From an uncultured delta proteobacterium (GTDB lineage Bacteria; Myxococcota_A; Polyangia; Palsa-1104): a stretch of DNA of 64,000 nt. Each line of letters starts with the position of its first letter. Within the stretch, counting starts at the first letter, position 1. Shown one piece after another: positions 213 through 13,025 of this stretch. The position numbers and the translations under genes are program-made. The DNA is taken from the NCBI GenBank assembly GCA_963785725.1, contig CAWAWS010000026.1, positions 160,001 to 224,000 on the forward strand. The letters run 5' to 3'. The notes under the pieces are model-generated. The model did no database searches, was not told where the DNA came from, and saw nothing but the letters and a program-made list of their open reading frames with translations.

Positions 213-2378
213 GTGCACGCCCTCGCCGACCAGGTCCTGCTCGGCCCACGCTCGCTGCCGCCTTTGCTCGGCGGCTGCGTCGGCATGGCGTTGGCGCTCT
301 TTTTGGCCATCAAGCCGGGCGAGTCGCGCAAGCGGACGTGGTTCGCCATCATCGCCTTTTGCTCGACGATCTGGTCCTGGGCGGCGGCGCTGTCGCTCGG
401 CGCCTTGTCGCCCGAGCTCGGCTCGTGGCTGACGCGCGTGTCGTACGCGGCGATCGCGCTGGCCGGGCCGTGCGCGCTCAGCTTCGGCGCCGAGCTGGCG
501 CGCGCGCCGACGAAGTGGCAGCGGCCGGCGCACGCGGTCGCGATCGTGGCCGCGGTCGCGATCTTGTGGCTGCCGGCGCTGACACACGTGCGACCGCGGC
601 TGGGCGGCGGCTATTGGCCGGCGCCGTCGTGGTCACTCCTGCTGGCGGCGCTGGCGTCGGGACCGCCGCTCGTCGGCGGCATGCACCTCGTGCGGCGCGC
701 GTGGCGACGCCTGCCGCCTTGCCGGCACCGGCGGCAGCTGGCGTGGGCGTGGGCGGCGCTGCTGCTCGGCGCGCTCGGCGTCTTCGATCTGCAGACGGTG
801 CTGACCGGCTTCTATCCCACGGCCTGGCTGACCAGCATGCTCTCGTCGGTGACGCTGTTCTACGCCATCGCCCAGCATCGGCTCATGGCGACGCGCACGT
901 TCATTCGTCAGGCGCTCATCGGCACCGTCGGGCTGTGCGCGGGCGCGCTCGTCGTCGTGGCGCTGGTGTCGTGGGCGCCGCGGCTGTTCGCGCAAGGCAG
1001 CGCCGGGCTCTTTTTGACGACGCTGGCGCTGTTCGCCGTCGTGCGGCTGTGGTCGAGCGCGGTCGAGCCGGCGCTGACGTATCTGTTCGGCTGGCGGCGC
1101 CGCCACATCGACCACGCCTTCGTCGAGTTCGAGCGCCGCTCGCTGGAGGCGCGCTCGACGGAGGAGGTCGCGCTGTGCCTGGCCGGCGCGCTGCGCGAAG
1201 CGTTCGACGCGCGCCTCGTGCGCCTCTTGCCGGCCGATCGCGACCGCGCCGACGAGCATCCCAGCATCGGCGTCGCTGAGGACGCGCTGGCCGAGTCGGG
1301 CGCGCCGCTCTTGCGCGATCTCGTCGAGCTCGATGACGCCCGCGCGCCGCGCATGCTCGACGCGCTCGATCGCTTGGGCGCCGACGCGCTCGTGCCGCTC
1401 ATGCGCGACACGCAGCTGCAGGCGATGGTGGCCATCGCCGGCGACGCGCTGTCGCCCGCCGACGACCTCGTCGCCGACGAGCTGCGCCGCATGGGTCAGC
1501 GCGCGGCGCTGGCCTGGGTCAACGCGCGGCTCTACAGCGAGGTCGCGCGCCGCTCGGCCGGCCTCGAGACGCAGGTTCGCCTGCGCACCGCCGAGCTCGA
1601 GCAGGCGCTCGGCGAGCTGCGCACGGCGCACGCGCGGCTCGTCGAGGTCGAGCGCACGTCGTCGCTGGGCCTGCTCGTCGCCGGCATCAGCCACGAGATC
1701 AACAACGCGCTCAACATCATCCACGCCAACTTGCCGACGCTGGCCCGCTACGCGCAGCGCTACGACGAGCTGGCGGGCGACGGCGGCTCCGCCGACCTGC
1801 AGATCGCGCGACAGCTGTGGCCGCGCGCCATCGCCGAGCTCGGCGACTCGGTGCGGCGCACGCGCGCCATCGTCGACAATCTACGCAAGTTCGCGCGGCC
1901 CGACACCGAGCGCCGCCTCGTGCGCGTGCAAGAAGGGCTCGACGCCGCGCTCAACCTCCTGCGCCGCCGCACCGACGGCCGCCTCGACATCGCGCGCGTC
2001 TACGCCGGCACGCCTTCCATCGACGGCTATCCCGGCCAGCTGAACCAGTGCTTCTTCAACCTGCTCTTGAACGCCGTCGAGGCTGCGCGCAGTGAGATCT
2101 GGGTCGTCCTCGGCCCGCGCGACGAATCGGGCGGCGTGTCGCTCATCATCAACGACGACGGCGACGGCGGCGAAGCCGACGACCAAGAGCGGCTCTTCTC
2201 GCCCGTCATGACGGCGCGTGAGCGCGCGAGCAGCCTCGGCCTCACCGTCTCGCGCAGCATCGTGCAGCGCCACGGCGGCACGCTCGAGGTCGCGCGCGCC
2301 GCCGGCGCCGGCGTGACGGTTCGCCTGACCTTACCGCCGAGCGCGCCCGCGCCGGCCGCCCCGAAGGACTCGGCATGA
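213..2378 (+). CDS. Membrane sensor histidine kinase (multi-TM N-terminus, GAF-like region, HisKA, degenerate HATPase)
   Basis: Many hydrophobic helices; H-box GISHEINNAL; N-box NLLLNAVEA; G1 DDGDG; F/G2 degenerate (LFSPVMTAR...ASSLGL). Confidence 0.85.
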   Translation: MHALADQVLLGPRSLPPLLGGCVGMALALFLAIKPGESRKRTWFAIIAFCSTIWSWAAALSLGALSPELGSWLTRVSYAAIALAGPCALSFGAELARAPTKWQRPAHAVAIVAAVAILWLPALTHVRPRLGGGYWPAPSWSLLLAALASGPPLVGGMHLVRRAWRRLPPCRHRRQLAWAWAALLLGALGVFDLQTVLTGFYPTAWLTSMLSSVTLFYAIAQHRLMATRTFIRQALIGTVGLCAGALVVVALVSWAPRLFAQGSAGLFLTTLALFAVVRLWSSAVEPALTYLFGWRRRHIDHAFVEFERRSLEARSTEEVALCLAGALREAFDARLVRLLPADRDRADEHPSIGVAEDALAESGAPLLRDLVELDDARAPRMLDALDRLGADALVPLMRDTQLQAMVAIAGDALSPADDLVADELRRMGQRAALAWVNARLYSEVARRSAGLETQVRLRTAELEQALGELRTAHARLVEVERTSSLGLLVAGISHEINNALNIIHANLPTLARYAQRYDELAGDGGSADLQIARQLWPRAIAELGDSVRRTRAIVDNLRKFARPDTERRLVRVQEGLDAALNLLRRRTDGRLDIARVYAGTPSIDGYPGQLNQCFFNLLLNAVEAARSEIWVVLGPRDESGGVSLIINDDGDGGEADDQERLFSPVMTARERASSLGLTVSRSIVQRHGGTLEVARAAGAGVTVRLTLPPSAPAPAAPKDSA

Positions 2379-2454
2379 GCGAGCGTGCGCGTTTGACCGA
2401 AGCCCGTCGGGCTCGCCGATCGACGGTAGGCCCTTTGCCGAACGAAGGGCAGCC

Positions 2455-3282
2455 ATGAGCGGCAAAGTGCTCATTCTCGACGGCGACGCCGCTCGCATCG
2501 GCCGCTTGGCGCAGGCCGTCACGCAAGCCGGCGGCGAGCCGCTCGAAGTGACCTCGACGGCGGCCGCCTTGCGCGTCGCCGCCGCCGCCGATTTGGCGTT
2601 GCTCGCCGGCAGCGAAGGCTTGGCCGCGCTGGCCGCGCTGTCGGCGTCGCATCCGTCGCTGCCGCGCATCAGCGTCATCGGCAACGCCACCGGGCCCGAG
2701 CTCGAGCGCCTGACCAGCACGATCCGCGTCGCGCTCTTGGCCAAGCGGCCGTCGGTGCGCGACTTCGAGACGCTGATTCGCGATCGCCGCACCGGCGCCT
2801 TCGGCTACCACTATTTCCGCGTGCGCCTCGCCGACGAGCTCGATCGCGCCGGCCGCTACGCGCGCGCCTTGTCGCTCATGTTCGTCGACGTCGATGATCT
2901 GCGCGGCCTCAACGATCGTCTCGGTCGTCCGGCCGGCGACTTCGCGCTCATGCAGGTCGCGCAGGCGCTGACCGCCGGCGCGCGCTCGGTCGACTGCGTC
3001 GGTCGCTGGGCGGGCGGCGGCTTCGCGGTGCTGTTGCCGGAGACGGCCGTCGGCGCCGCCTACGGCTTGGCCGAGCGGCTGCGCGCCGACCTGGCCGCGC
3101 GGCGACTGCCGGCGCCGCCCGCGCTCGTGCCGCAAGGTCGCCAGCTGCGCGTCACCGTCAGCTGCGGCGTGGCCTCGCTGTACAAAGACGGCACGGCGCG
3201 CCCGCAAACGCTCGTCGCCCGCGCCGACCACGCGTTGTGGCGCGCCAAGCTGAGCGGCCGCAACCGCTCGGTCGTCGACTAA
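2455..3282 (+). CDS. Degenerate GGDEF-domain protein with pseudo-receiver N-terminus
   Basis: GGDEF scaffold (DRRTG, MFVDVDDL, NDRLGRPAGD, VTVSCGVA, ADHALWRAKLSGRN); A-site reads AGGGF; I-site RSVD intact. Confidence 0.85.
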   Translation: MSGKVLILDGDAARIGRLAQAVTQAGGEPLEVTSTAAALRVAAAADLALLAGSEGLAALAALSASHPSLPRISVIGNATGPELERLTSTIRVALLAKRPSVRDFETLIRDRRTGAFGYHYFRVRLADELDRAGRYARALSLMFVDVDDLRGLNDRLGRPAGDFALMQVAQALTAGARSVDCVGRWAGGGFAVLLPETAVGAAYGLAERLRADLAARRLPAPPALVPQGRQLRVTVSCGVASLYKDGTARPQTLVARADHALWRAKLSGRNRSVVD

Positions 3283-3288
3283 CGGCGC

Positions 3289-5490
3289 ATGATCAGGCTG
3301 TATCCGACCGGCTGGCTCGCGCTCTATTGGCTGTCCGCCGCCGTCGGTGCGCTGTTGACCGTGCTGCTACGCCAGCGCGGCCACGGGCTGTTACGCCGGC
3401 GCGTCACGCTCATCCTCGCCAACGTCAGCGTCGTCCTCTTCAGCAACGGCCTCATCCTCGGCGCCACCAACGCCCTGACGGCGACGTGGGCCGTCCGCTT
3501 CTCGCAGTTCTTCGTCTGCTGGCTGCCCTTTACCGGCGTGCGCTTCGTGACGGCGTTGGCCAATCGCCGCATGGTCGTGCTCGAGCGCGCCACGCTCATC
3601 GCCGCGCCCTTGACCGCGCTCTTGTCGCTGGCCACGCCGTGGGTCATCGCCGACGCGCGGCCCTATCCGTACGGCTTTGCGGGCGTGGCCGGGCCGCTCT
3701 ATCCCTTGGCGCTCGGCGAGATGATGCTGATGGTGGCGATGCCGCTCGTCGTCTTCGGCGCCTACTTGGACGAGCGGCGACCGCTGGAAAAGCGGCAGCT
3801 CGCCAACATCGCCGTCGCCTGCGCGTCGGGCATGATCGCGTTCGTCGACATTCTGCCGGTGCTCGGCTTCGACGTGCCGCCGATCGGCTGGATACCGCTC
3901 GACTTCGCCGCCTTCGGCCTCATCACCGCCATCATTCGCTACCGCTTCCTCGACATTCGCATGGCCTCGCGGCGGCTGTTGTGGTGGACGGCGACGACGC
4001 TCGCCGGCGCGCTCGTCTTCGCCGTGCCGCTCGGCCCGCTGGCGCCACATCTGACGCGCCATCGGCTCGCGCTCGGCATCTTCGCGGCGCTCCTCCTCTT
4101 GCTCATGCGCGTCTGGGTGGGCACGGCGCAGGCGCGCATCGATCGGCTCGTCGGTCGCCGGCGCCGCGACCTCGACGCCGAGATGGCGCACCTGTCCGAC
4201 GCCGTCGCCGCGCTGCAGACGACCGAAGCGCTCGGCCGCGCCATCGACCGCTTCTTGGTGGCGATCGATCGTCGCTTGGCCGCGCTCGTCGTGCTCGAGC
4301 CGTCGGGCAAGGCGCGCGTCGCCTTGTCGGCGTGGGGCTCGGTGCCGGCGCCGTCGCGGCAGAGCCCGCTGTACGCCGAGCTGCGCGCGCTCGGTCCGCT
4401 CGTGTGGCGCGATCAGGTGCGCGGCAGCAAAGTCGAGGTCGAGCGCGCCTGCGTCCGCTGGGGTGCGGAGTACCTGGCGCCACTCGTCGATGGCGAGGAG
4501 CTGTTGGCCATCGTCGCGGTGGCGCCCAAAGCCGGCGGCGGTCTCGCCGACGTGCTCGAGCTGGAGGCGCTCGAGCGCATGTGCGTGACGGTGACGGCGG
4601 CGCTGGCGTCGGCGCGGCTCTACGAACGCTTGCGCGCGCTGCACCACGAGCTCGAGGCGAAGGCCGAGGCGCGCCAGGTCTCGCTGGCGACCGCGCTGCG
4701 CGACCTGCGCGGCGCCGAGCAGCGGCTCGTGCAGTCGGAGAAGATGGCGTCGCTCGGCCAGATCGTCGGCGGCGTCGCGGCCGATCTCGTCGACGAAGTG
4801 CGCGGCGTGCACGACCGCGTCGCGCAGCTGCGCAGCCACGCCGAGGAGGTCGCGACGGCCGTGCACGCGCGCCTCGACGCCGCGCCCGAGCTCGCCGACG
4901 AAGCGGTGCGCGACATGGCGCGCGATCTCGGCCCGCTGCTCGACGCCGTCGGCGAAGGCGGCCGCCGCGCGCTCGCCATCGCCCAAGATTTGTCGCGCTT
5001 CGCGCCCAGCGCCGATGAAGAGGCCGAAGGTCCGCGTCGCGCGCCCGCGCGTCTCCAAGATCTATGCGACGGCACGCTCAAGCTGTGCGCCGGCCACTTG
5101 GCGGGCGTCGACGTAGTTCGCCGCTACGACGCCGACCTGCCGCCGGTGCTGGTGGAATCGGGCCCACTGGGACAAGTCGTGCTCAACCTCGTCCTCAACG
5201 CGACGCAGGCCATGAAAGGCGTCGGCACCTTGACCATCGCCACCGCGCGCTGCGAGTGGGACGGCCGCGCCGGCGCCGAGCTCATCGTGCACGACACCGG
5301 CCCCGGCATCGCGCCCGAGATCTTGCCGCGCATCTTCGAGCCCTTCTTCTCGACCAAGGGTCAAACCCTGGGCACGGGCCTCGGCTTGAGCGTCAGCTAC
5401 GGCATCGTCGAACGCCACGGCGGCCGCATTCATGTCGAGTCCAAACCGGGTGCCGGATCGACCTTCCGCGTACAACTACCGATAGGCTAA
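3289..5490 (+). CDS. Membrane histidine-kinase-like protein lacking the phosphoacceptor His, with intact HATPase
   Basis: QSEKMASLGQIVGGVAADL (His absent); N-box NLVLNATQA, G1 DTGPG, F IFEPFFSTK and G2 GTGLGL all intact; multi-TM N-terminus. Confidence 0.85.
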   Translation: MIRLYPTGWLALYWLSAAVGALLTVLLRQRGHGLLRRRVTLILANVSVVLFSNGLILGATNALTATWAVRFSQFFVCWLPFTGVRFVTALANRRMVVLERATLIAAPLTALLSLATPWVIADARPYPYGFAGVAGPLYPLALGEMMLMVAMPLVVFGAYLDERRPLEKRQLANIAVACASGMIAFVDILPVLGFDVPPIGWIPLDFAAFGLITAIIRYRFLDIRMASRRLLWWTATTLAGALVFAVPLGPLAPHLTRHRLALGIFAALLLLLMRVWVGTAQARIDRLVGRRRRDLDAEMAHLSDAVAALQTTEALGRAIDRFLVAIDRRLAALVVLEPSGKARVALSAWGSVPAPSRQSPLYAELRALGPLVWRDQVRGSKVEVERACVRWGAEYLAPLVDGEELLAIVAVAPKAGGGLADVLELEALERMCVTVTAALASARLYERLRALHHELEAKAEARQVSLATALRDLRGAEQRLVQSEKMASLGQIVGGVAADLVDEVRGVHDRVAQLRSHAEEVATAVHARLDAAPELADEAVRDMARDLGPLLDAVGEGGRRALAIAQDLSRFAPSADEEAEGPRRAPARLQDLCDGTLKLCAGHLAGVDVVRRYDADLPPVLVESGPLGQVVLNLVLNATQAMKGVGTLTIATARCEWDGRAGAELIVHDTGPGIAPEILPRIFEPFFSTKGQTLGTGLGLSVSYGIVERHGGRIHVESKPGAGSTFRVQLPIG

Positions 5491-5696: not shown

Positions 5697-6593
5697 ATGC
5701 GTCGCAGCCCATATATGCTTTCTGTCGCGTTTGCCGCCACGTTGGTGAGCGGTTGCCTCGGCTCGGTGGGAACGCCTGAGCCGCAAACTCAGACCCCGAC
5801 GACCGGCAACGGCGCCAGCGCCGGTGGCGGCGGCAGCGCCGCGGCTGGTAGCGGCGGCAGCGCCGGCGGTGGCGGCACCGTCGCCGCGGCTGGCGGCGGC
5901 GGCTCGTCGTCCGCGGGCGGTGGCGGCACCGTCGAAGCGCCGCCGCCGGATGCCGGTCCGCCGGCGCTCACCGGCGCCATCGCCATCGCGCTCGACAAGA
6001 CGACGGATACCATCCGTCTCAACGAGAGCCACTCGTACACGGCCACGATCACGCCGTCGAACGGCTTCTCCGGCAGCGTCACGCTCGCGCTCGACAACCC
6101 GCCCGCGGGTGTGTCGGCGACCTTCGATCCGGCCGCCATCATGGTCTCGGCTACGCCGGCCACTGTCGCCGTGACCATCAGCGTCGCCTCCGACATGGCG
6201 ACCCCGGCCGCCTCGGTGCCGCTCTCGATCAAGGGCGTCTCGGGCGAGATTACGGCGGCCGCCGCGCTCGGCGTCATGATTCCCGCCGAGCTCTACGTGC
6301 AGATTCCGAAGGGCGTCAACATCGGCACCGCGGCCGCGCCCAACATGACCGCCTTCGGCAAGTACGGCATGCCCGTCATCCAAGTCGCCGCCGGCACCAA
6401 GGTCACTTGGGTCAACGGCGACACCATCAACCACGAGATCCACTCGGGCGGCGGCCAGGGCATCGCGCACGAGCCCGGTCCGCTGCTCGCCAACGGCGGC
6501 AACGCGTACTCGCAGACCTTCTCGGCCAAGGGCACCTTCACCTATCGCTGCCACATCCATCCGAACATGGAGGGACAGATCATCGTCCAGTAG
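5697..6593 (+). CDS. Lipoprotein with Gly-rich linker, Ig-like domain and C-terminal cupredoxin (plastocyanin-like) domain
   Basis: AAGGAG RBS; lipobox VSGC; GTKVTWVNGDTINHEI and YRCHIHPNM supply type-1 copper ligands H, C, H, M. Confidence 0.8.
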   Translation: MRRSPYMLSVAFAATLVSGCLGSVGTPEPQTQTPTTGNGASAGGGGSAAAGSGGSAGGGGTVAAAGGGGSSSAGGGGTVEAPPPDAGPPALTGAIAIALDKTTDTIRLNESHSYTATITPSNGFSGSVTLALDNPPAGVSATFDPAAIMVSATPATVAVTISVASDMATPAASVPLSIKGVSGEITAAAALGVMIPAELYVQIPKGVNIGTAAAPNMTAFGKYGMPVIQVAAGTKVTWVNGDTINHEIHSGGGQGIAHEPGPLLANGGNAYSQTFSAKGTFTYRCHIHPNMEGQIIVQ

Positions 6594-6809: not shown

Positions 6810-9800
6810 GTGCAAACCAAGTTGGCAGCGGCGGTGTGGAGCGGCCGCTGGCGGCTCGACCGCTGCGTCGGCACCGGCGCCGACGGCACGACGTGGGCCG
6901 CCACCGATCTGCGCGACGATCGCCCGGTCGCGCTCAAGGTCCTGCACGCGGCGCTCGACGAGGAGGCGCGTGAGCGGCTGCGCTGGGAGTTCGTGCTGCT
7001 CGGCGCCATCGAGCATCCGCATCTGGTGCGCGTCTTCGATCTCGACTGCATCGAGGGCCGGCCGTTCTACACGAGCGAGCTGCTCGACGGAGCCGCGCCA
7101 ACTCGGTTGGCGACGCTGCCGCCGGCCGAGCGGGCGCGCAAGCTCTGTCAGACGTTGGCCGAGGTCGGCAGCGCGCTCGACGCCTTGCATCGCCGCGGGC
7201 TCGTCCATCACGACGTCAAGCCGGCCAACCTGCTCGTCGATGCCGAGGGGCGCACGCGGCTCGGCGACTTGGGGCTGGCCGCGCTGCTCGGCGCCGTCGG
7301 TGGCAGCGGCGGGGCGCGCGGGACGCCGGCCTATCTGGCGCCCGAAGCGTGGCTTCGGCGGCGGCGATGCGCGCGTCGACCTCTATGCGCTGGGCGCGAC
7401 GGCGTACGAGCTGTGGAGCGGGCGCGCCCCGTTCGTCGCCGCTTCCTTGCCGAGCTGTTGGCGCAGACGCAGACGACGCGTCCGCCGCCGCTCGCCGACG
7501 CGCCCGAAGGGTTGGCGCAGCTCGATCGAGCGGCTCTTGGCGCTCGACCCGGCGGCACGCCCGTCGACGGCGCGCGCGGTCGTCGACGAAGCGCGGCGCT
7601 TGGGGGCGCGACTCGACGGTGCGCTCGACGGCGGTCGCGACGCGCCGGTCTTGTGTCGTCCGCTCTTGGCCGGTCGTGAGCGCGAGCTGTCGGCGCTGCG
7701 TTCGGCCTTGGCGACCGCGCGGCTCATCCTCGTCGAAGGCGCGCCCGGCTCCGGTCGCTCACGGCTGATCGACGAGGCGCGGCGCGCGCAGCAGCTCGAC
7801 GACGTGGCCGCGCGGCCGCGCGGCGACGCCGTGGCGGCAGCTCGCCGACGAGGCGCCGGCGCGGCTGTGCGCGCAGCTGGCCGCGACGCCGGCGCGGCTG
7901 CACGTGGCGCGCGTCGACGAGCCGCGCGTCGAGGAGCTGTTGACGATGGTCGCGCACGGCGCCGCCGCGCCGTCGGTCGTGCTGGCCGAAGTCGAGAGCG
8001 GGGCGTTGCCGCAGCTCGACGGTGAAGGTGTCGTTCGCTTGTCGCTCGATCGCCTCGACGAGCCGGCGGTGACGCGGCTCGTGACGTCGATGTTCGGCCG
8101 CGCTGACGACGAGCTGGCGCGTGCCGTCCATCGCGCCAGCGGCGGGCTGCCGCGCATCGCCGTCGCCATCGTGCGCGCGGCCGCCGCCGCCGCCGATGGG
8201 CAGCCGCTGGCCAACCAAGTGGCCAGGTTGGCAGGGCAGGGGCTCGGCGATTTGTTGGCGGCGTCGCTCGCTCGACTGCCGCCCGCGGCGCGCGCGCTCG
8301 TCGACGCTGCCGCCGTCTTGGGCCGCGCCGCATCGCTGCCGGAGGTCGCCGCGCTGGCGCAGGTCTCGGTGGAGGAGGCGTACGCGGCGGCGTTGCAGGC
8401 GCGGGCGGCGGGAGCGCTCGACCTCGACCGCAGCGGCCGCCTGCAGTTTCCGTCGACGGCGCACGCCGAGGCCGCCTATTCCGCGCTCGATCGGCGACGC
8501 CGCCCGGCGCTTCATCGGCGCGCGCTGGCGGACGCCGTCGACGTCGTCGATCGGGCGCGCCACCAGGTCGCGCTCGCCGACGATGACGCCGGCGCCGCGG
8601 CCGTCGTCGCCGGCGACCAGCTGCTCGAGCGCGGTCAGGCGCGCACGGCGCTGCGCCTCCTGGCCGACGCCGAGCGGCTCGGCGCCGACGTCTTGCCGCC
8701 CGCCGCGCAGCTCGTTCGCGCCCGCGCGTTCACGCAAACCGGCGACTACGACGCGGCGCTGTCCGCGCTCACCATCCTGGAACGCGCCCTCGATCGTTCC
8801 GCGGATCGCGTTGGCGATCGTGCCGGCGACGCGCGCTTGCGCCTCGACGCCGCCGTCATCGCGGCTCGCGCGCTGCAGCGGGCCGGCGATCTCGTCGCCG
8901 CCGAGGCGCGCCTGGCGCCCATCCTCGCCGCCGGCGCCATCGCCGGCACGACGCCGCGCAGCCGCGACGAAGTGCGCGGGCTCCTCGGTCGCATCTTGGT
9001 CGCGCGCGGCGCCTACGCCGAAGCCGTCGCCGCCTGCGCCAGCTCCGAGCTGCCGTCGGCTAGCGTCGCCGAAGCGCGCGGCCTCGGCAGCCTCTACCTC
9101 GGTCGCCTCGACGACGCCGACGGCGCCTTCGCCGCCGCCGAGCGCGCCGCCGCCGATGAGCCAACTTCGTTGGCAAGGGCGCGATCGCTGCGCGGCATGG
9201 CCGCTCACGGCCGCGATCGGCTGGCCGAAGCCGCCGCGCTCTATCAGTCGGCGCTCGAGCTCGCCCGTAAAGCCGACGATCTGCATGGCGCCGCCATTTA
9301 CGCCGCCAACCTGGGCGCGGTGTTGCGCGAGCAGGCCGAGTACGAGCGCGCGTTGCCGCCGACCGCCGACGCTGCGCGCGACCTCGGTCGTCTCGGCAAG
9401 CGCGCCGAGCGCGCCTTCGCGCTCTACAATTACGGCAACCTGCTCCTGTCGATCGGCGATCTGGACGGCGCCGAGCAGGCCGCGACCGATGCTGCGGCCT
9501 TGGCGCGCGCCGCCGCCGCCACGCGTGAGCTCGGCTACGCGCAGCTGCTTAGCGGCGATCTGGCGCGCCGCCGCGGCGACCATCGAGCGGCCGTCCTCGC
9601 TTATCGCGCCGGCGCGGCCAGCCTGGCCGGCTCGCCCGCCGCCGACCGCTTGCAAGCCGCGCTCAACGTGGCCGAAGCGCTCGCCGAGAGCGGTGATCCG
9701 GCAGCCGGACGCGCCGCCTTGGCCGACGCTCGGACACTGGCCGCCGCTGCCAACCAAGTTGACAGCTTTCATCCGACCGCCGCGCGGGTGGCGTTGCTCG

Positions 9801-11921
9801 TCGGTGACACCGTCGCCGTCGAGCTGCTGGCCGAGCTGACCCGCCTGCGCGAGCAGGCCGCCGTCAGCTTGCGCCGCGATCTCGCCTTTCGCGCCGATGT
9901 CTTGGCCGCGCGCGCCCACATCCGCGCCGGCAACGGCGCCGCCGCCTACGACTGCCTCATCCGTGCCCGCTCGACCTGGGAGGAGATTCGCATGCGCACG
10001 CCCGAGCTCCGTCGCGAAGCCGCCGACGAAGATCCCGACGCCCGCCGGCTGCGCGAGCTGCTTGCCGCCGCCGCCGATTCGTCGCGCAGCCGGCCCGCGC
10101 CGCCCGCGTCACCGCCACCCGCGCTCGCGGCGACGGCGAGCTCGCCGGCGTTGCCGCTCGTGTCAGCGGCGTCGCTCGTGTCGTCCACGTCCGCGCCATT
10201 CGGTGTGTTAACGCCGACATTACCCATATCGGCGCCGTTCGCGCTCCAGTCATCGCCCTTCGGCGCGCTCGCGCCGTCGCTGTCATCGTCGGCGTCGCTG
10301 CCGCTTTCGCCGTCCGCCGCAGCGTCGTCGCCGTCGCCGCCGGATGCCGCCGCGCTGCGCCGTCTCCTCGGCATCAACAAGCGGCTCAACTCCGAGCAGC
10401 GCTTGCCGGTCCTGCTCGATCTCATCCTCGACACCGTCCTCGACCTCGCCTCGGCGGAGCGCGGCTTCATCCTGCTCACCGACGGCGCCGGCCAGTGGCA
10501 AGTCGAAGCCGCGCGCAACATCGCCGAGGAGCAGCTCGCCGCCGACGGCCCCGGCGGCGCCTTCTCGCGCAGCATCGCCGAGCGGGCCGCGCGCGAAGCC
10601 GTCCCCATCGTCACGCTCGACGCCAGCGGCGATCACCGCTTCGAAGCCGCGCTCTCCGTCTCCGACCTCAAGCTGCGCTCGGTCCTCGCCGTCCCGCTCA
10701 TCGTCAAAGGCACCGTCGTCGGCTGCGTCTACGCCGACCATCGTCTGCGCGCCGGCGCCTTCGGCTACAGCGAGGTCGCGCTCGTCTGCGATCTCGCCGA
10801 GCAGGCCGCCATCGCCGTCGAGAACGCGCGCCTGCACGCCGAAAACGAGCGCCGCCGTAAAGCCATCGACGAGCTCAACCGCGAGCTCGAGCACAAGGTC
10901 GCGTCGCAAGCGCTCGAGCTCGGCGAGCTGCACAAAGAGGTGCGCACGAGCCGCGCCGCGCTCTCGTCACGCTACAACTACGACAACTTGGTTGGCAGGA
11001 CGCCGCGCATGCTCGAGCTCTTTCGGCTGCTCGACCGCGTCACCGAGACGTCGCTGCCGGTCGTCATCTACGGCGAATCCGGCACCGGCAAGGAGCTCGT
11101 CGCCCGCGCCATCCATCACAACGGCCCGCGCCGCGCCCGCGCCTTCGTCACCGAATCGTGCGCCGCCATCCCCGAGACGCTGCTCGAGGCCGCGCTCTTC
11201 GGCCACGTGCGCGGCGCCTTCACCGGCGCCGACGCCGATCGCCGCGGCCTCTTCGAGATCGCCGACCAGGGCACGCTCTTCCTCGACGAAGTGGGCGAGA
11301 TGTCGCCGGCGATGCAGTCGAAGCTCTTGCGCGTGCTGCAACAGGGCGAGTTCCGTCGCGTCGGCGGCGAGAAGACGCACAAAGTCGACGTCCGCCTGCT
11401 CGTCGCCTCCAACCGCGACCTCGGCCGCCTCGTCGAGCAGGGCAAGTTTCGCGAGGATTCGTTCTACCGCCTCAATGTCGTGCGCGTCGGCCTGCCGCCG
11501 CTGCGCGAGCGGCGCGACGACATCCCGCTCCTCGTCGAGCACTTCCTGAAGAAATTCGCCGACGAGAACAAGCGCCCGCCGCGCCGCATCGCCCGCGCCG
11601 CCTTGCACAAGCTCATCGGCTACCGCTGGCCCGGCAACGTGCGCGAGCTCGAGAACGAGGTCGTCCGCGCCGCGTCGCTCGGTGGCGAGACCATCGCCGT
11701 CGACGATTTGTCGCCGCCGGTGGCCGCCGGCGAGCCGGAAGCGGCCGTCGACTCGCCCGACGATCCTCGGCATCAAGCCGCGCGTCGAACGCTTGGAGCG
11801 CACGCTGCTTCGCGAAGCCTTGCAGCGCGCCGACGGCAACCAGACCCAAGCCGCCAAGCTGCTCGGCCTGTCGCGCTTCGGTCTGCAGAAGAAGCTGCGC
11901 CGCTATGGTCTCGAGGCCTGA
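6810..11921 (+). CDS. Ser/Thr kinase - P-loop - TPR-like - GAF - sigma54 AAA+ - Fis HTH fusion (bEBP), split by several frameshifts
   Basis: Kinase motifs VALKVL, HHDVKPAN, DLG, GTPAYLAPE continue in another frame (DLYALG, GRERE, GAPGSGRS). ORF 7904-11941 holds TPR-like repeats, GAF, GESGTGKE, GAFTGA, LFLDEVGEM and WPGNVRELEN. The HTH (GNQTQAAKLLGLSRFGLQKKLRRYG) is in the frame ending at 11921. Breaks near 7350, 7445, 7520, 7810-7840 and 11766. Confidence 0.8.
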
Positions 11922-12548: not shown

Positions 12549-12577
12549 TTGCTTTGCCCACCTTCCGCTCCTACGGT
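12549..12577 (+). promoter_or_regulatory. Sigma70-type promoter, probably leaderless transcript
   Basis: TTGCTT-17 nt-TACGGT, with ATG 12585 seven nt after the -10. Confidence 0.45.
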
Positions 12578-12584
12578 AGAACCG

Positions 12585-13025
12585 ATGGACACCAGCGGCG
12601 CGTTGGGGTCGAAGACGCGTTCGGGCGCGCATCTGGCGGTTCCTCTCCTGCTCGTCGTCGAAGATACCGAAGAGCTGTATGAGCTCTACTCCGACTTCTT
12701 GGCCGGCGTCGGCTACGCAGTCGAGGGCACGAACAACGGCGTCGAAGCGGTCGAGGAAGCGCGCCAGCTCTTGCCCGATCTGATCCTCATGGATCTGGCG
12801 TTGCCGCGCATGAACGGCTGGGATGCGATCGCGCTCCTCAAATCGCAAGAAGCGACGCGCCACATCCCGATCATCGCGCTCACCGGCCACGTGCAGCCGC
12901 GGTTCGCGCAGCTGGCGCGCAGCGCCGGCGCCGACGTCGTGCTCCTGAAACCGTGCGAGCTGACGCAGCTGCTGGGTGAGATCGAGCGGTTGTTGGGACA
13001 CGCCGCGCCGACGCATCATGCCTAG
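12585..13025 (+). CDS. Single-domain response regulator (DivK/CheY-like)
   Basis: LLVVED, PDLILMDLALPRMNG, IPIIALTG, KP motifs. Confidence 0.88.
   Translation: MDTSGALGSKTRSGAHLAVPLLLVVEDTEELYELYSDFLAGVGYAVEGTNNGVEAVEEARQLLPDLILMDLALPRMNGWDAIALLKSQEATRHIPIIALTGHVQPRFAQLARSAGADVVLLKPCELTQLLGEIERLLGHAAPTHHA

Follow-up and report, generated by a model that had tools for sequence, protein, structure and literature searches.

Two linked, paralogous sensor kinases with complementary motif losses: a candidate heterodimeric histidine kinase in an uncultured member of the Polyangia

Two membrane sensor kinases (A and B), encoded on either side of a regulator gene (M) near the start of the window (the whole 64,000-nucleotide stretch of DNA analysed), each lack a different key part, namely a glycine of the ATP pocket in A and the phospho-accepting histidine in B, and are therefore likely to act as a pair. 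Judging from the motifs of the two proteins and their relatives, A and B probably (at about 60%) form a heterodimer, with B as the subunit that phosphorylates A in trans, resembling the model proposed for FasBC. The original prediction of a heterodimeric split kinase is supported in part: the gene linkage, the motifs and the trans-acting kinase ZraS speak for it, while the lineage-specific nature of the decay in A speaks against it. Sensor kinases are usually treated as homodimers. Complementation between mutants without the His and mutants of the ATP site is used in the laboratory, and to our knowledge few natural counterparts exist, namely CheA3/CheA4 and the FasBC model. In the largely open-access literature searched, no paper on the A-M-B operon was found.

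Table 1. Features of the A-M-B locus and of a neighbouring gene (positions in the window)
Feature	Position	Strand	Remarks
Kinase A	213-2378	+	ORF of 721 aa, intact frame; HisKA_7TM membrane domain, GAF-like domain, coiled coil, DHp with His494, CA with eroded ATP lid
His494 codon of A, predicted phospho-acceptor	1692-1694	+	Base-level check; H+1 Glu and H+4 Asn kept
G1-to-G2 stretch of A	2154-2243	+	DDGDGG, LFSPVMT, ASSLGL (base-level check)
Gene M	2455-3282	+	Between kinases A and B; pseudo-receiver (no phospho-Asp) fused to degenerate GGDEF domain
I-site motif RxxD of M	2983-2994	+	In the GGDEF domain
Degenerate GGDEF signature of M (AGGGF)	3010-3024	+	In the GGDEF domain
Kinase B	3289-5490	+	ORF of 733 aa, intact frame; layout as A; DHp without His (GGVAADL); canonical N/G1/F/G2
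Ala498 codon (GCC) of B at the phospho-His position	4780-4782	+	Base-level check
ATP-binding motifs of B	5197-5388	+	N637, DTGPGI, IFEPFFSTK, GTGLGL (base-level check)
Ser/Thr kinase-sigma54 gene	6810-11915		True frameshifts (base-level check)

The two kinases are paralogues of about 30% identity, and the common layout that had been read from their sequences was borne out by Pfam and by AlphaFold models. HisKA_7TM, HisKA and HATPase_c are matched in A; in B, HATPase_c is matched, HisKA_7TM falls below the cutoff and HisKA is absent. The models are alike, with a helical membrane region, a small alpha/beta domain and a long helix leading into the DHp hairpin and the CA domain. Pfam GAF has no match in A or B; the same region is matched in the A-class relatives P0218 and P0226.

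The base-level check agreed with the earlier statement that A retains its H box while its F and G2 boxes have decayed. The H box (HEINNA) carries the phospho-accepting His and acidic H+1 residue of canonical kinases (His494-Glu495); the His is present in 65/65 homologues, the His, Glu and H+4 Asn are invariant among close homologues, and all A homologues have Ala rather than Pro at H+5. The N box (N620) and the DxGxG of G1 (DDGDG) are likewise canonical, the N-box Asn and G1 Asp each being kept in 63/63, while the F box and the GxGxG of G2 are not: the first G2 Gly occurs in 0/63 close homologues, against 117/122 background kinases (about 96%; their His is present in 118/123). The substitutions in the window's own A are G1 Ile to Gly (the residue after G1 is Gly in the window's clade as against Ile/Val/Leu), the second F-box Phe to Val, and loss of the first and second G2 Gly. 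The usual state of the A family is DDGxG[IV], F[QRE]PF and xAGLGL (the last as in G004). In most orthologues N, G1 and F are intact (first F-box Phe in 62/63 close homologues), and the departure from a normal kinase is limited to the first two positions of G2. Heavy multi-residue F/G2 decay is confined to the window's clade (three proteins of 63, clade support 100), and four deep A members (P0218, P0219, G453 and G460) have an intact G2 (GSGLGL).

The changes in A had been set apart from the indel errors elsewhere in the window, and they do differ from them: the Ser/Thr kinase-sigma54 gene downstream contains true frameshifts, and the F/G2/G1 state of A is shared by the independent proteins P0071 and P0072 (85-88% identity to the window's A), so that sequencing or assembly error was rejected as its source. 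Severe CA loss with the His kept is seen in three separate A lineages, namely the window's clade, P0103 (N-box Asn to Tyr, lid deleted) and P0226 (N and F boxes lost). The branch of P0103 is long across the whole protein, which may be a decaying copy. A further candidate, P0097, looks like a frameshift and was rejected as genuine decay; recent pseudogenisation of the operon was rejected as well, B and the His helix being invariant.

For B, the claim of textbook N, G1, F and G2 boxes without an H-box His was confirmed at the level of bases, and it extends to the relatives. No His stands at the phospho-His position in 59/59 close homologues covering the column (Ala in 91% of homologues), and no invariant His was found elsewhere in the DHp domain of B, the best columns reaching 39/59 and 30/59. 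The N, D, Gly and Phe positions of the ATP-binding motifs are invariant in 57/57, and heavy CA losses number 0 among 57 close B domains. This combination of a missing His and a retained ATP site is found in both taxonomic orders in which the pair occurs; two deep B-class proteins are exceptions, P0254 having the His, and P0338 lacking both the His and the first Gly. Helix 1 of B is variable and acidic, and is the least conserved part of its core.

The gene order A-M-B is kept in 10/10 genomes carrying the pair, from two orders of one class: the window's genome, six of the 14 other family genomes (the same six for A and for B) and 3/3 genomes of the second order. The class sample yielded 12 matches in 401 genomes, of which G550 and G447 were ordinary kinases and were dropped, and the phylum sample yielded a match in 0/400 other genomes, with two candidates scored per genome. 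A metagenome scan with alignment A1 returned mostly ordinary kinases, with one true orthologue among the 80 kept loci (L038). In total, 21 A/B protein pairs were available, most of them matched by the equal length of their contigs. Candidate A+B fusion proteins were rejected, the inspected matches of 1,100-1,400 aa being HK-REC-HK hybrids with near-canonical CA boxes. With 26 canonical relatives for comparison, FastTree placed A in a clade with support 96 and B in a clade of 16/17 rows with support 99, the two being sister clades (support 100). On this tree, A and B are sister paralogues derived from a single old duplication of a membrane/GAF sensor kinase. The orthologue and synteny check that had been proposed thus bears out the linkage, the family-wide pattern of B and the His-positive, G2-negative state of A in the close family, whereas it shows the heavy F/G2 decay to be lineage-specific, in three of the 63 proteins.

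Conservation by region separates the two proteins further. The His helix is better conserved in A than in B both within the family (0.88 vs 0.68) and when the core is set against the deep members (0.80 vs 0.38), each interval excluding zero, and the stretch preceding the N box stands at 0.81 in A vs 0.59 in B. Whole-CA identity is 0.72 in A and 0.72 in B; with the window's clade removed, the difference in the lid narrows to 0.80 vs 0.88 and its interval spans zero, as does that of the helix-2 difference. By these values, the CA domain of A is not decayed as a whole; its ATP-pocket motifs are eroded to a degree that varies by lineage, and its His helix is kept.

The equal conservation of the two CA domains, together with the retention of N, G1 and F in nearly all A proteins and the intact G2 of the four deep members, is also what would be expected if A were still an autonomous kinase with an odd G2 in most lineages, the window's clade representing a later, separate loss, and B a pseudokinase of the DivL kind, donating no phosphate and instead tuning, inhibiting or localising A. 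In its favour, two E. coli kinases, DcuS (ERGVGL) and DpiB (EHGIGL), have no Gly at the first G2 position, and DcuS is reported to autophosphorylate efficiently (PMC9429925); in favour of the heterodimer, replacement of that glycine by Ala is reported to abolish autophosphorylation in Hik2 (PMC4751278). DivL is described as a His-less kinase that regulates another kinase and, like B with its Ala498, has a non-acceptor residue in place of the His within a full HisKA fold and a partner kinase (PMC4211667). Nevertheless, according to the same source, the CA domain of DivL is dispensable and binds ATP weakly, whereas the ATP motifs of B show no variation in 57/57 and persist in the deep order; DivL senses DivK~P through its DHp domain and binds this regulator by the very surface (helix 1) that in B is variable and acidic. 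Such a reading also leaves unexplained why the His is retained where the ATP site of A is wrecked, and it is considered unlikely.

Another use for A is suggested by its kept H-E-x-x-N motif, in which the H, E and H+4 Asn are invariant: A could be a phospho-acceptor or phosphatase that recovers phosphate from a receiver and dephosphorylates a target, with B as a nucleotide-binding partner from whose ATP no phosphate reaches A. RedE of Myxococcus xanthus, which has the His, is reported not to autophosphorylate and to act as a phosphatase (PMC2755868). The source describes RedE as a bare transmitter and places no His-less paralogue alongside it, and this reading gives no role to the invariant catalytic motifs of B or to a linkage fixed over two orders, which makes it quite improbable.

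In the proposed heterodimer of A and B, the intact ATP-binding domain of B would transfer phosphate in trans onto His494 of A. The His of B may have been lost first, which would have left the catalytic site of A partly redundant. Since A has kept its E-x-x-N motif, receiver docking and any phosphatase activity would fall to it. A is predicted to depend wholly on B in the window's clade, where its own ATP site is most damaged, and partly elsewhere. The word "obligate" in the original prediction is accordingly best supported for the window's clade and has less support family-wide, given that most A proteins differ only at xAGLGL and that the four deep members keep GSGLGL. A complex prediction with two copies of A (440-710) and one of B (445-732) scored 0.18 against a mark of 0.32 and has no bearing either way.

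Among known systems, FasB/FasC of group A Streptococcus is alike in that a single regulator is encoded together with two membrane proteins resembling sensor kinases; in the present family the two linked genes are kept together in every genome carrying the pair. Its authors propose, from genetics and two-hybrid data, a heterodimer in which the ATPase domain of FasB phosphorylates His246 of FasC, the kinase domain of FasC and the membrane domain of one partner being dispensable (PMC12675982). As described there, FasB retains histidines and cis phosphorylation on H284 is not excluded, whereas B has no H-box His; the regulator of the Fas system binds DNA and is ComE-like, whereas M is a receiver-GGDEF protein. 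Unlike FasBC, A and B belong to the NtrB/ZraS-like HisKA kinases and carry HisKA_7TM and GAF-like domains, and an origin independent of FasBC is therefore likely, as inferred from domain type with the Fas proteins compared by description. For ZraS, which among solved structures matches A best by sequence and B best by fold, a trans-acting mechanism is described (PMC12314577). The biochemical precedent is EnvZ, whose G401A/G403A mutant is reported dead alone and phosphorylated once mixed with H243A (PMC4734776), a mixture that likewise pairs a His-bearing subunit without the first two G2 glycines, as in the window's A, with a His-less subunit having an intact ATP site; the EnvZ pair, however, consists of engineered point mutants of one gene, while A and B are paralogues with their states fixed over two orders. 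Acceptor and catalysis also lie on separate polypeptides in CheA3/CheA4, each reported inactive alone (PMC3591291), and in Hik36/Hik43 (PMC7656254), but these are described as CheA-class proteins with an HPt acceptor and whole domains missing, whereas neither A nor B lacks a domain: each has DHp and CA as well as a membrane sensor of its own.

The original prediction left out the middle gene, M, and its descent. M is, by comparison with its homologues, descended from an intact receiver-GGDEF regulator. In the deeper order its receiver is intact with the Asp present, and RxxD is absent in G453 and G460. Among close homologues with a residue at the acceptor column, 0/65 have the Asp; the GGDEF signature is lost in 79/79 homologues, RxxD is kept in 78/79, and several forms of 178-181 aa have no receiver at all. 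In degenerate GGDEF proteins acting as c-di-GMP receptors, RxxD sits five residues upstream of GG[DE]EF, and M conforms to this spacing. With the Asp and the signature lost and the I-site kept, M in the window's order is predicted to be a c-di-GMP-binding adaptor. SgmT of Myxococcus xanthus offers a parallel in the use of a GGDEF domain as a c-di-GMP receptor in a GAF/histidine-kinase system; there the domain is described as fused to an ordinary kinase (PMC3509222), whereas M stands as a protein by itself and goes back to the cognate regulator.

These losses bear on where phosphate would go. In the deeper order it would pass to the co-encoded M, and in the window's order to an unlinked receiver; the missing Asp of the co-encoded receiver in the latter counts against phosphotransfer by the pair. 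The earlier remark that the operon encodes no intact receiver holds for the window's genome, M having a receiver-like N-terminus without the Asp. That absence, along with the loss of the Asp, the GGDEF signature and in several forms the entire receiver, would also suit a module of the window's order that transfers no phosphate and serves as a conformational or scaffolding complex read by M. It is hard to explain without chemistry, though, why the His/Glu/Asn of A and the ATP motifs of B are invariant in the same lineages, and the genome encodes intact receivers resembling the ancestral receiver of M, the most similar lying in the ORFs C14:80367-81464, C16:116510-119920, C7:889846-890589 and C6:384607-386409; such a module is very improbable.

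Extending the trans-phosphorylating pair to its fullest form, A and B may be a natural obligate heterodimeric HisKA kinase that arose by duplication and complementary loss, with B as pure donor and A as pure acceptor and, in the window's order, M as a c-di-GMP-binding pseudo-receiver gating the pair and phosphate rewired to an unlinked receiver. Under this reading, which is possible but has the odds against it, output would need both A and B, since each carries its own membrane sensor. The AND gate of the original prediction is a conjecture of this kind, and in the FasBC model, where the membrane domain of one partner is dispensable, the precedent does not favour it.

The A family forms a graded natural series, from an intact G2 through the loss of one glycine to a wrecked pocket. 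The A/B family therefore allows the passage of a homodimeric kinase to an obligate heterodimer after duplication to be followed directly, and the combination of signals by two sensor domains on one dimer to be examined. Furthermore, annotation by domain would list a diguanylate cyclase and two kinases here, where the operon may in fact encode a single kinase and lack a cyclase.

The three consecutive genes A, M and B of the window comprise two kinase genes flanking a regulator gene, and both kinases share a layout of HisKA_7TM membrane domain, GAF-like region, coiled coil and kinase core, with ~30% identity over the aligned stretch. The motifs quoted in the original prediction are all present in the window sequence: the H box of A reads GISHEINN and is followed by an undamaged N box, DDGDGG, LFSPVMT and ASSLGL; in B, GGVAADL puts Ala where the His would be, and the N, G1, F and G2 boxes are all canonical.

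Coordinates of A, M, B and the surrounding features (window positions unless a locus is named)
Feature	Coordinates	Strand	Remark
A	213-2378	+	kinase
Arg-rich stretch of A	~1900-2035		residues 563-607, start of CA domain
M	2455-3282	+	regulator
B	3289-5490	+	kinase
Plastocyanin/azurin-domain gene	5697-6593	+	secreted-looking; domain C-terminal; directly 3' of B
Ser/Thr kinase-sigma54 gene	6810-11915	+	kinase-like N-terminus joined to sigma54-activator-like C-terminus (labels by sequence reading)
Stand-alone receiver	12549-13025	+	Pfam Response_reg; acceptor Asp present; 7 kb downstream
HEINTP kinase	G000:C26:152411-153952 (locus L127, window's genome)		ordinary kinase; ~7 kb upstream of window
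DUF507 gene	L127:17152-17709	-	just upstream of window; divergent from A

Linkage of the pair, proposed as a check, is kept in all carriers, A, M and B being adjacent in 10/10 across two orders. Within the family, B occurs at high identity in six of 14 other genomes and A in the same six, all with the order A-M-B (A is truncated by the contig end in one relative, G001, and M is frameshifted in another, G002). A deeper profile search of the order's other two families (27 genomes) found no further carriers, many genomes being incomplete, such that non-detection does not equal absence. A class sample of 401 genomes yielded 12 matches, namely the seven known, three from a second order and two that were dropped as they proved ordinary kinases. 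The second order retains A-M-B in 3/3 genomes, with B divided between two contigs in G445.

Protein searches provided 64 A and 59 B homologues besides the window's own, leaving out P0070 (the window's own record), one match of 15% coverage and nine distant kinases used as outgroups. Among B sequences covering the position (one fragment does not reach it), the H-box His is absent from 59/59, no invariant alternative His lies within the His-helix (DHp) domain, and its N, G1, F and G2 residues do not vary in any of 57 domains. In A, the His is present in 65/65, with Glu at H+1, Asn at H+4 and Ala replacing the usual Pro; 63/63 aligned domains retain the N box and the G1 Asp, but 0/63 have the first G2 Gly, a count that excludes P0097 (frameshift) and P0103 (lid deleted). 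This Gly is present in 118/123 background kinases of the own genome and 117/122 at unrelated loci (the latter not de-duplicated). The predicted reciprocal pattern (His+/G2- with His-/G2+) thus holds across the close family, but the heavy F/G2 decay is confined to the window clade, as the second G2 Gly, the second F-box Phe and the Ile after G1 are lost only in one clade made up of the window protein and a pair of close relatives. P0103, on a long branch, lost its N-box Asn and ATP lid independently of that clade.

According to the accessible portions of the respective papers, changing the first G2 Gly to Ala abolishes autophosphorylation of Hik2 (PMC4751278), while EnvZ with the first two changed serves as the usual inactive partner for complementation, becoming phosphorylated once mixed with a His mutant (PMC4734776). 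Both glycines matching the EnvZ pair are lost in the window's A. The first Gly is also absent in E. coli DcuS and DpiB, and DcuS is described as active in the available part of its report (PMC9429925); hence, one lost Gly is no proof of a dead A in other lineages. An active A regulated by a DivL-like B, with the conserved N box and G1 Asp of A on its side and the invariant ATP motifs of B against it, appears unlikely.

The best overall reading, with a probability of about 0.6, is an A-B heterodimer in which B is predicted to phosphorylate His494 of A in trans; the closest solved kinase, ZraS, is described as trans-acting in the part available of PMC12314577. Conservation was compared on 21 A/B pairs, most of them paired solely by equal size of source contigs, and their identities covary (r = 0.96), as shared ancestry alone predicts. 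Conservation of helix 1 is higher in A (0.88 vs 0.68 in B); B tends to be the better conserved in helix 2 (0.68 vs 0.81), across F-lid-G2 (0.73 vs 0.88) and at the end of the CA (ATP-binding) domain (0.63 vs 0.78), each with an interval at or near zero, and the lid gap is smaller without the window clade (0.80 vs 0.88). Such a pattern is compatible with a single working active site to which A contributes the His helix and B the CA domain. Nevertheless, A has the better conserved CA start (0.81 vs 0.59), and over the whole CA domain the two do not differ (0.72 in both), which speaks against the single-site picture and indicates that A's CA domain retains some role, be it nucleotide binding, partner docking or catalysis.

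Representatives at 50% identity were searched by profile for distant members of both classes. HEINNA or a near variant persists in the deep A proteins; xAGLGL or ASGLGL is found in ten newly listed members, GSGLGL in P0218 and P0219, and P0226 no longer has its N and F boxes. The His is missing from eight deep B proteins, seven of which have an intact and often Gly-rich G2; the His-less P0338 lacks the first G2 Gly, P0254 is an exception with His present, and P0245, also with His, was placed in neither class. All three B proteins of the second order lack the His, and A there reads GSGLGL in two genomes (in one of them, G453, the G1 Asp is Asn) and AAGLGL in one. With 26 canonical relatives for comparison, A and B form sister clades in a FastTree analysis of the cytoplasmic part (66 hand-chosen rows). 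From this quick, midpoint-drawn tree, the simplest history would be duplication, loss of B's His and only then repeated erosion of A's ATP pocket. An HK-REC-HK group carries two kinase cores per chain (P0223, P0232, P0233, P0235, P0239, P0240, P0242, P0244, P0246, P0247, P0250 and P0259), with HisKA_7TM or GAF domains in most.

Of 79 M homologues in the window's order, all lack the GGDEF signature that M has lost and 78 keep RxxD; several forms of 178-181 aa are devoid of any receiver. The claim that the operon encodes no intact receiver is borne out for the window's genome, since M's acceptor column has no Asp and, among the flanking genes examined, none belonging to the operon is an intact regulator. 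A non-phosphorylating A-M-B scaffold, which this state of M would suit and the invariant ATP-site residues of B would not, seems very improbable. In the second order, the receiver of M is intact (SDQRMPG; Pfam Response_reg) and its GGDEF domain reads GGDEF or GGEEF, with the substrate-binding helix altered or missing; therefore, the ancestral output was a receiver-GGDEF regulator. A's His helix has changed very little between the two orders. M is predicted to be a phospho-acceptor in the deeper order and a c-di-GMP-binding adaptor in the window's. The Arg-rich stretch of A (LLRRRTDGR) is near-invariant in the close family, though not versus the deep order, and may be a docking surface acquired as M turned pseudo-receiver. 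The stand-alone receiver, which has a match in the examined flanks of just a single relative, is a possible, as yet unsupported, candidate phosphate target.

Among neighbouring genes, the plastocyanin/azurin-domain gene is also downstream in three relatives (G004, G010 and G012). The Ser/Thr kinase-sigma54 gene is a single frame of 1,645-1,671 aa in G004 and G010 and occupies at least four frames in the window, which would be compatible with indel errors in the assembly, as had been assumed. The HEINTP kinase, at the same location in G002, G004 and G010, carries a frameshift close to the G1 box in the window's assembly. The DUF507 gene is followed by SDR-like and ETF-alpha-like genes, a block kept in five relatives. 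In two deeper-order loci (L168 of G453 and L169 of G460), a short gene directly 3' of B presumably resembles 6-pyruvoyl-tetrahydropterin synthase/QueD.

No description of the A-M-B operon was found in the literature searched (subscription papers and supplements lay outside it). In the accessible portions of their reports, the FasBC model (PMC12675982) and the split kinase CheA3/CheA4 (PMC3591291) are alike in proposed working, but A-B lies outside their families. In the heterodimer, A is predicted to serve in receiver docking and perhaps also as a phosphatase; a RedE-like phosphatase as A's whole function, which A's kept His, Glu and Asn would suit but which would leave B's invariant ATP motifs unexplained, is improbable, if slightly less so than the scaffold. 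A and B are a real, old and conserved complementary pair, in which A would probably depend wholly on B in the window's clade and only in part in other lineages.
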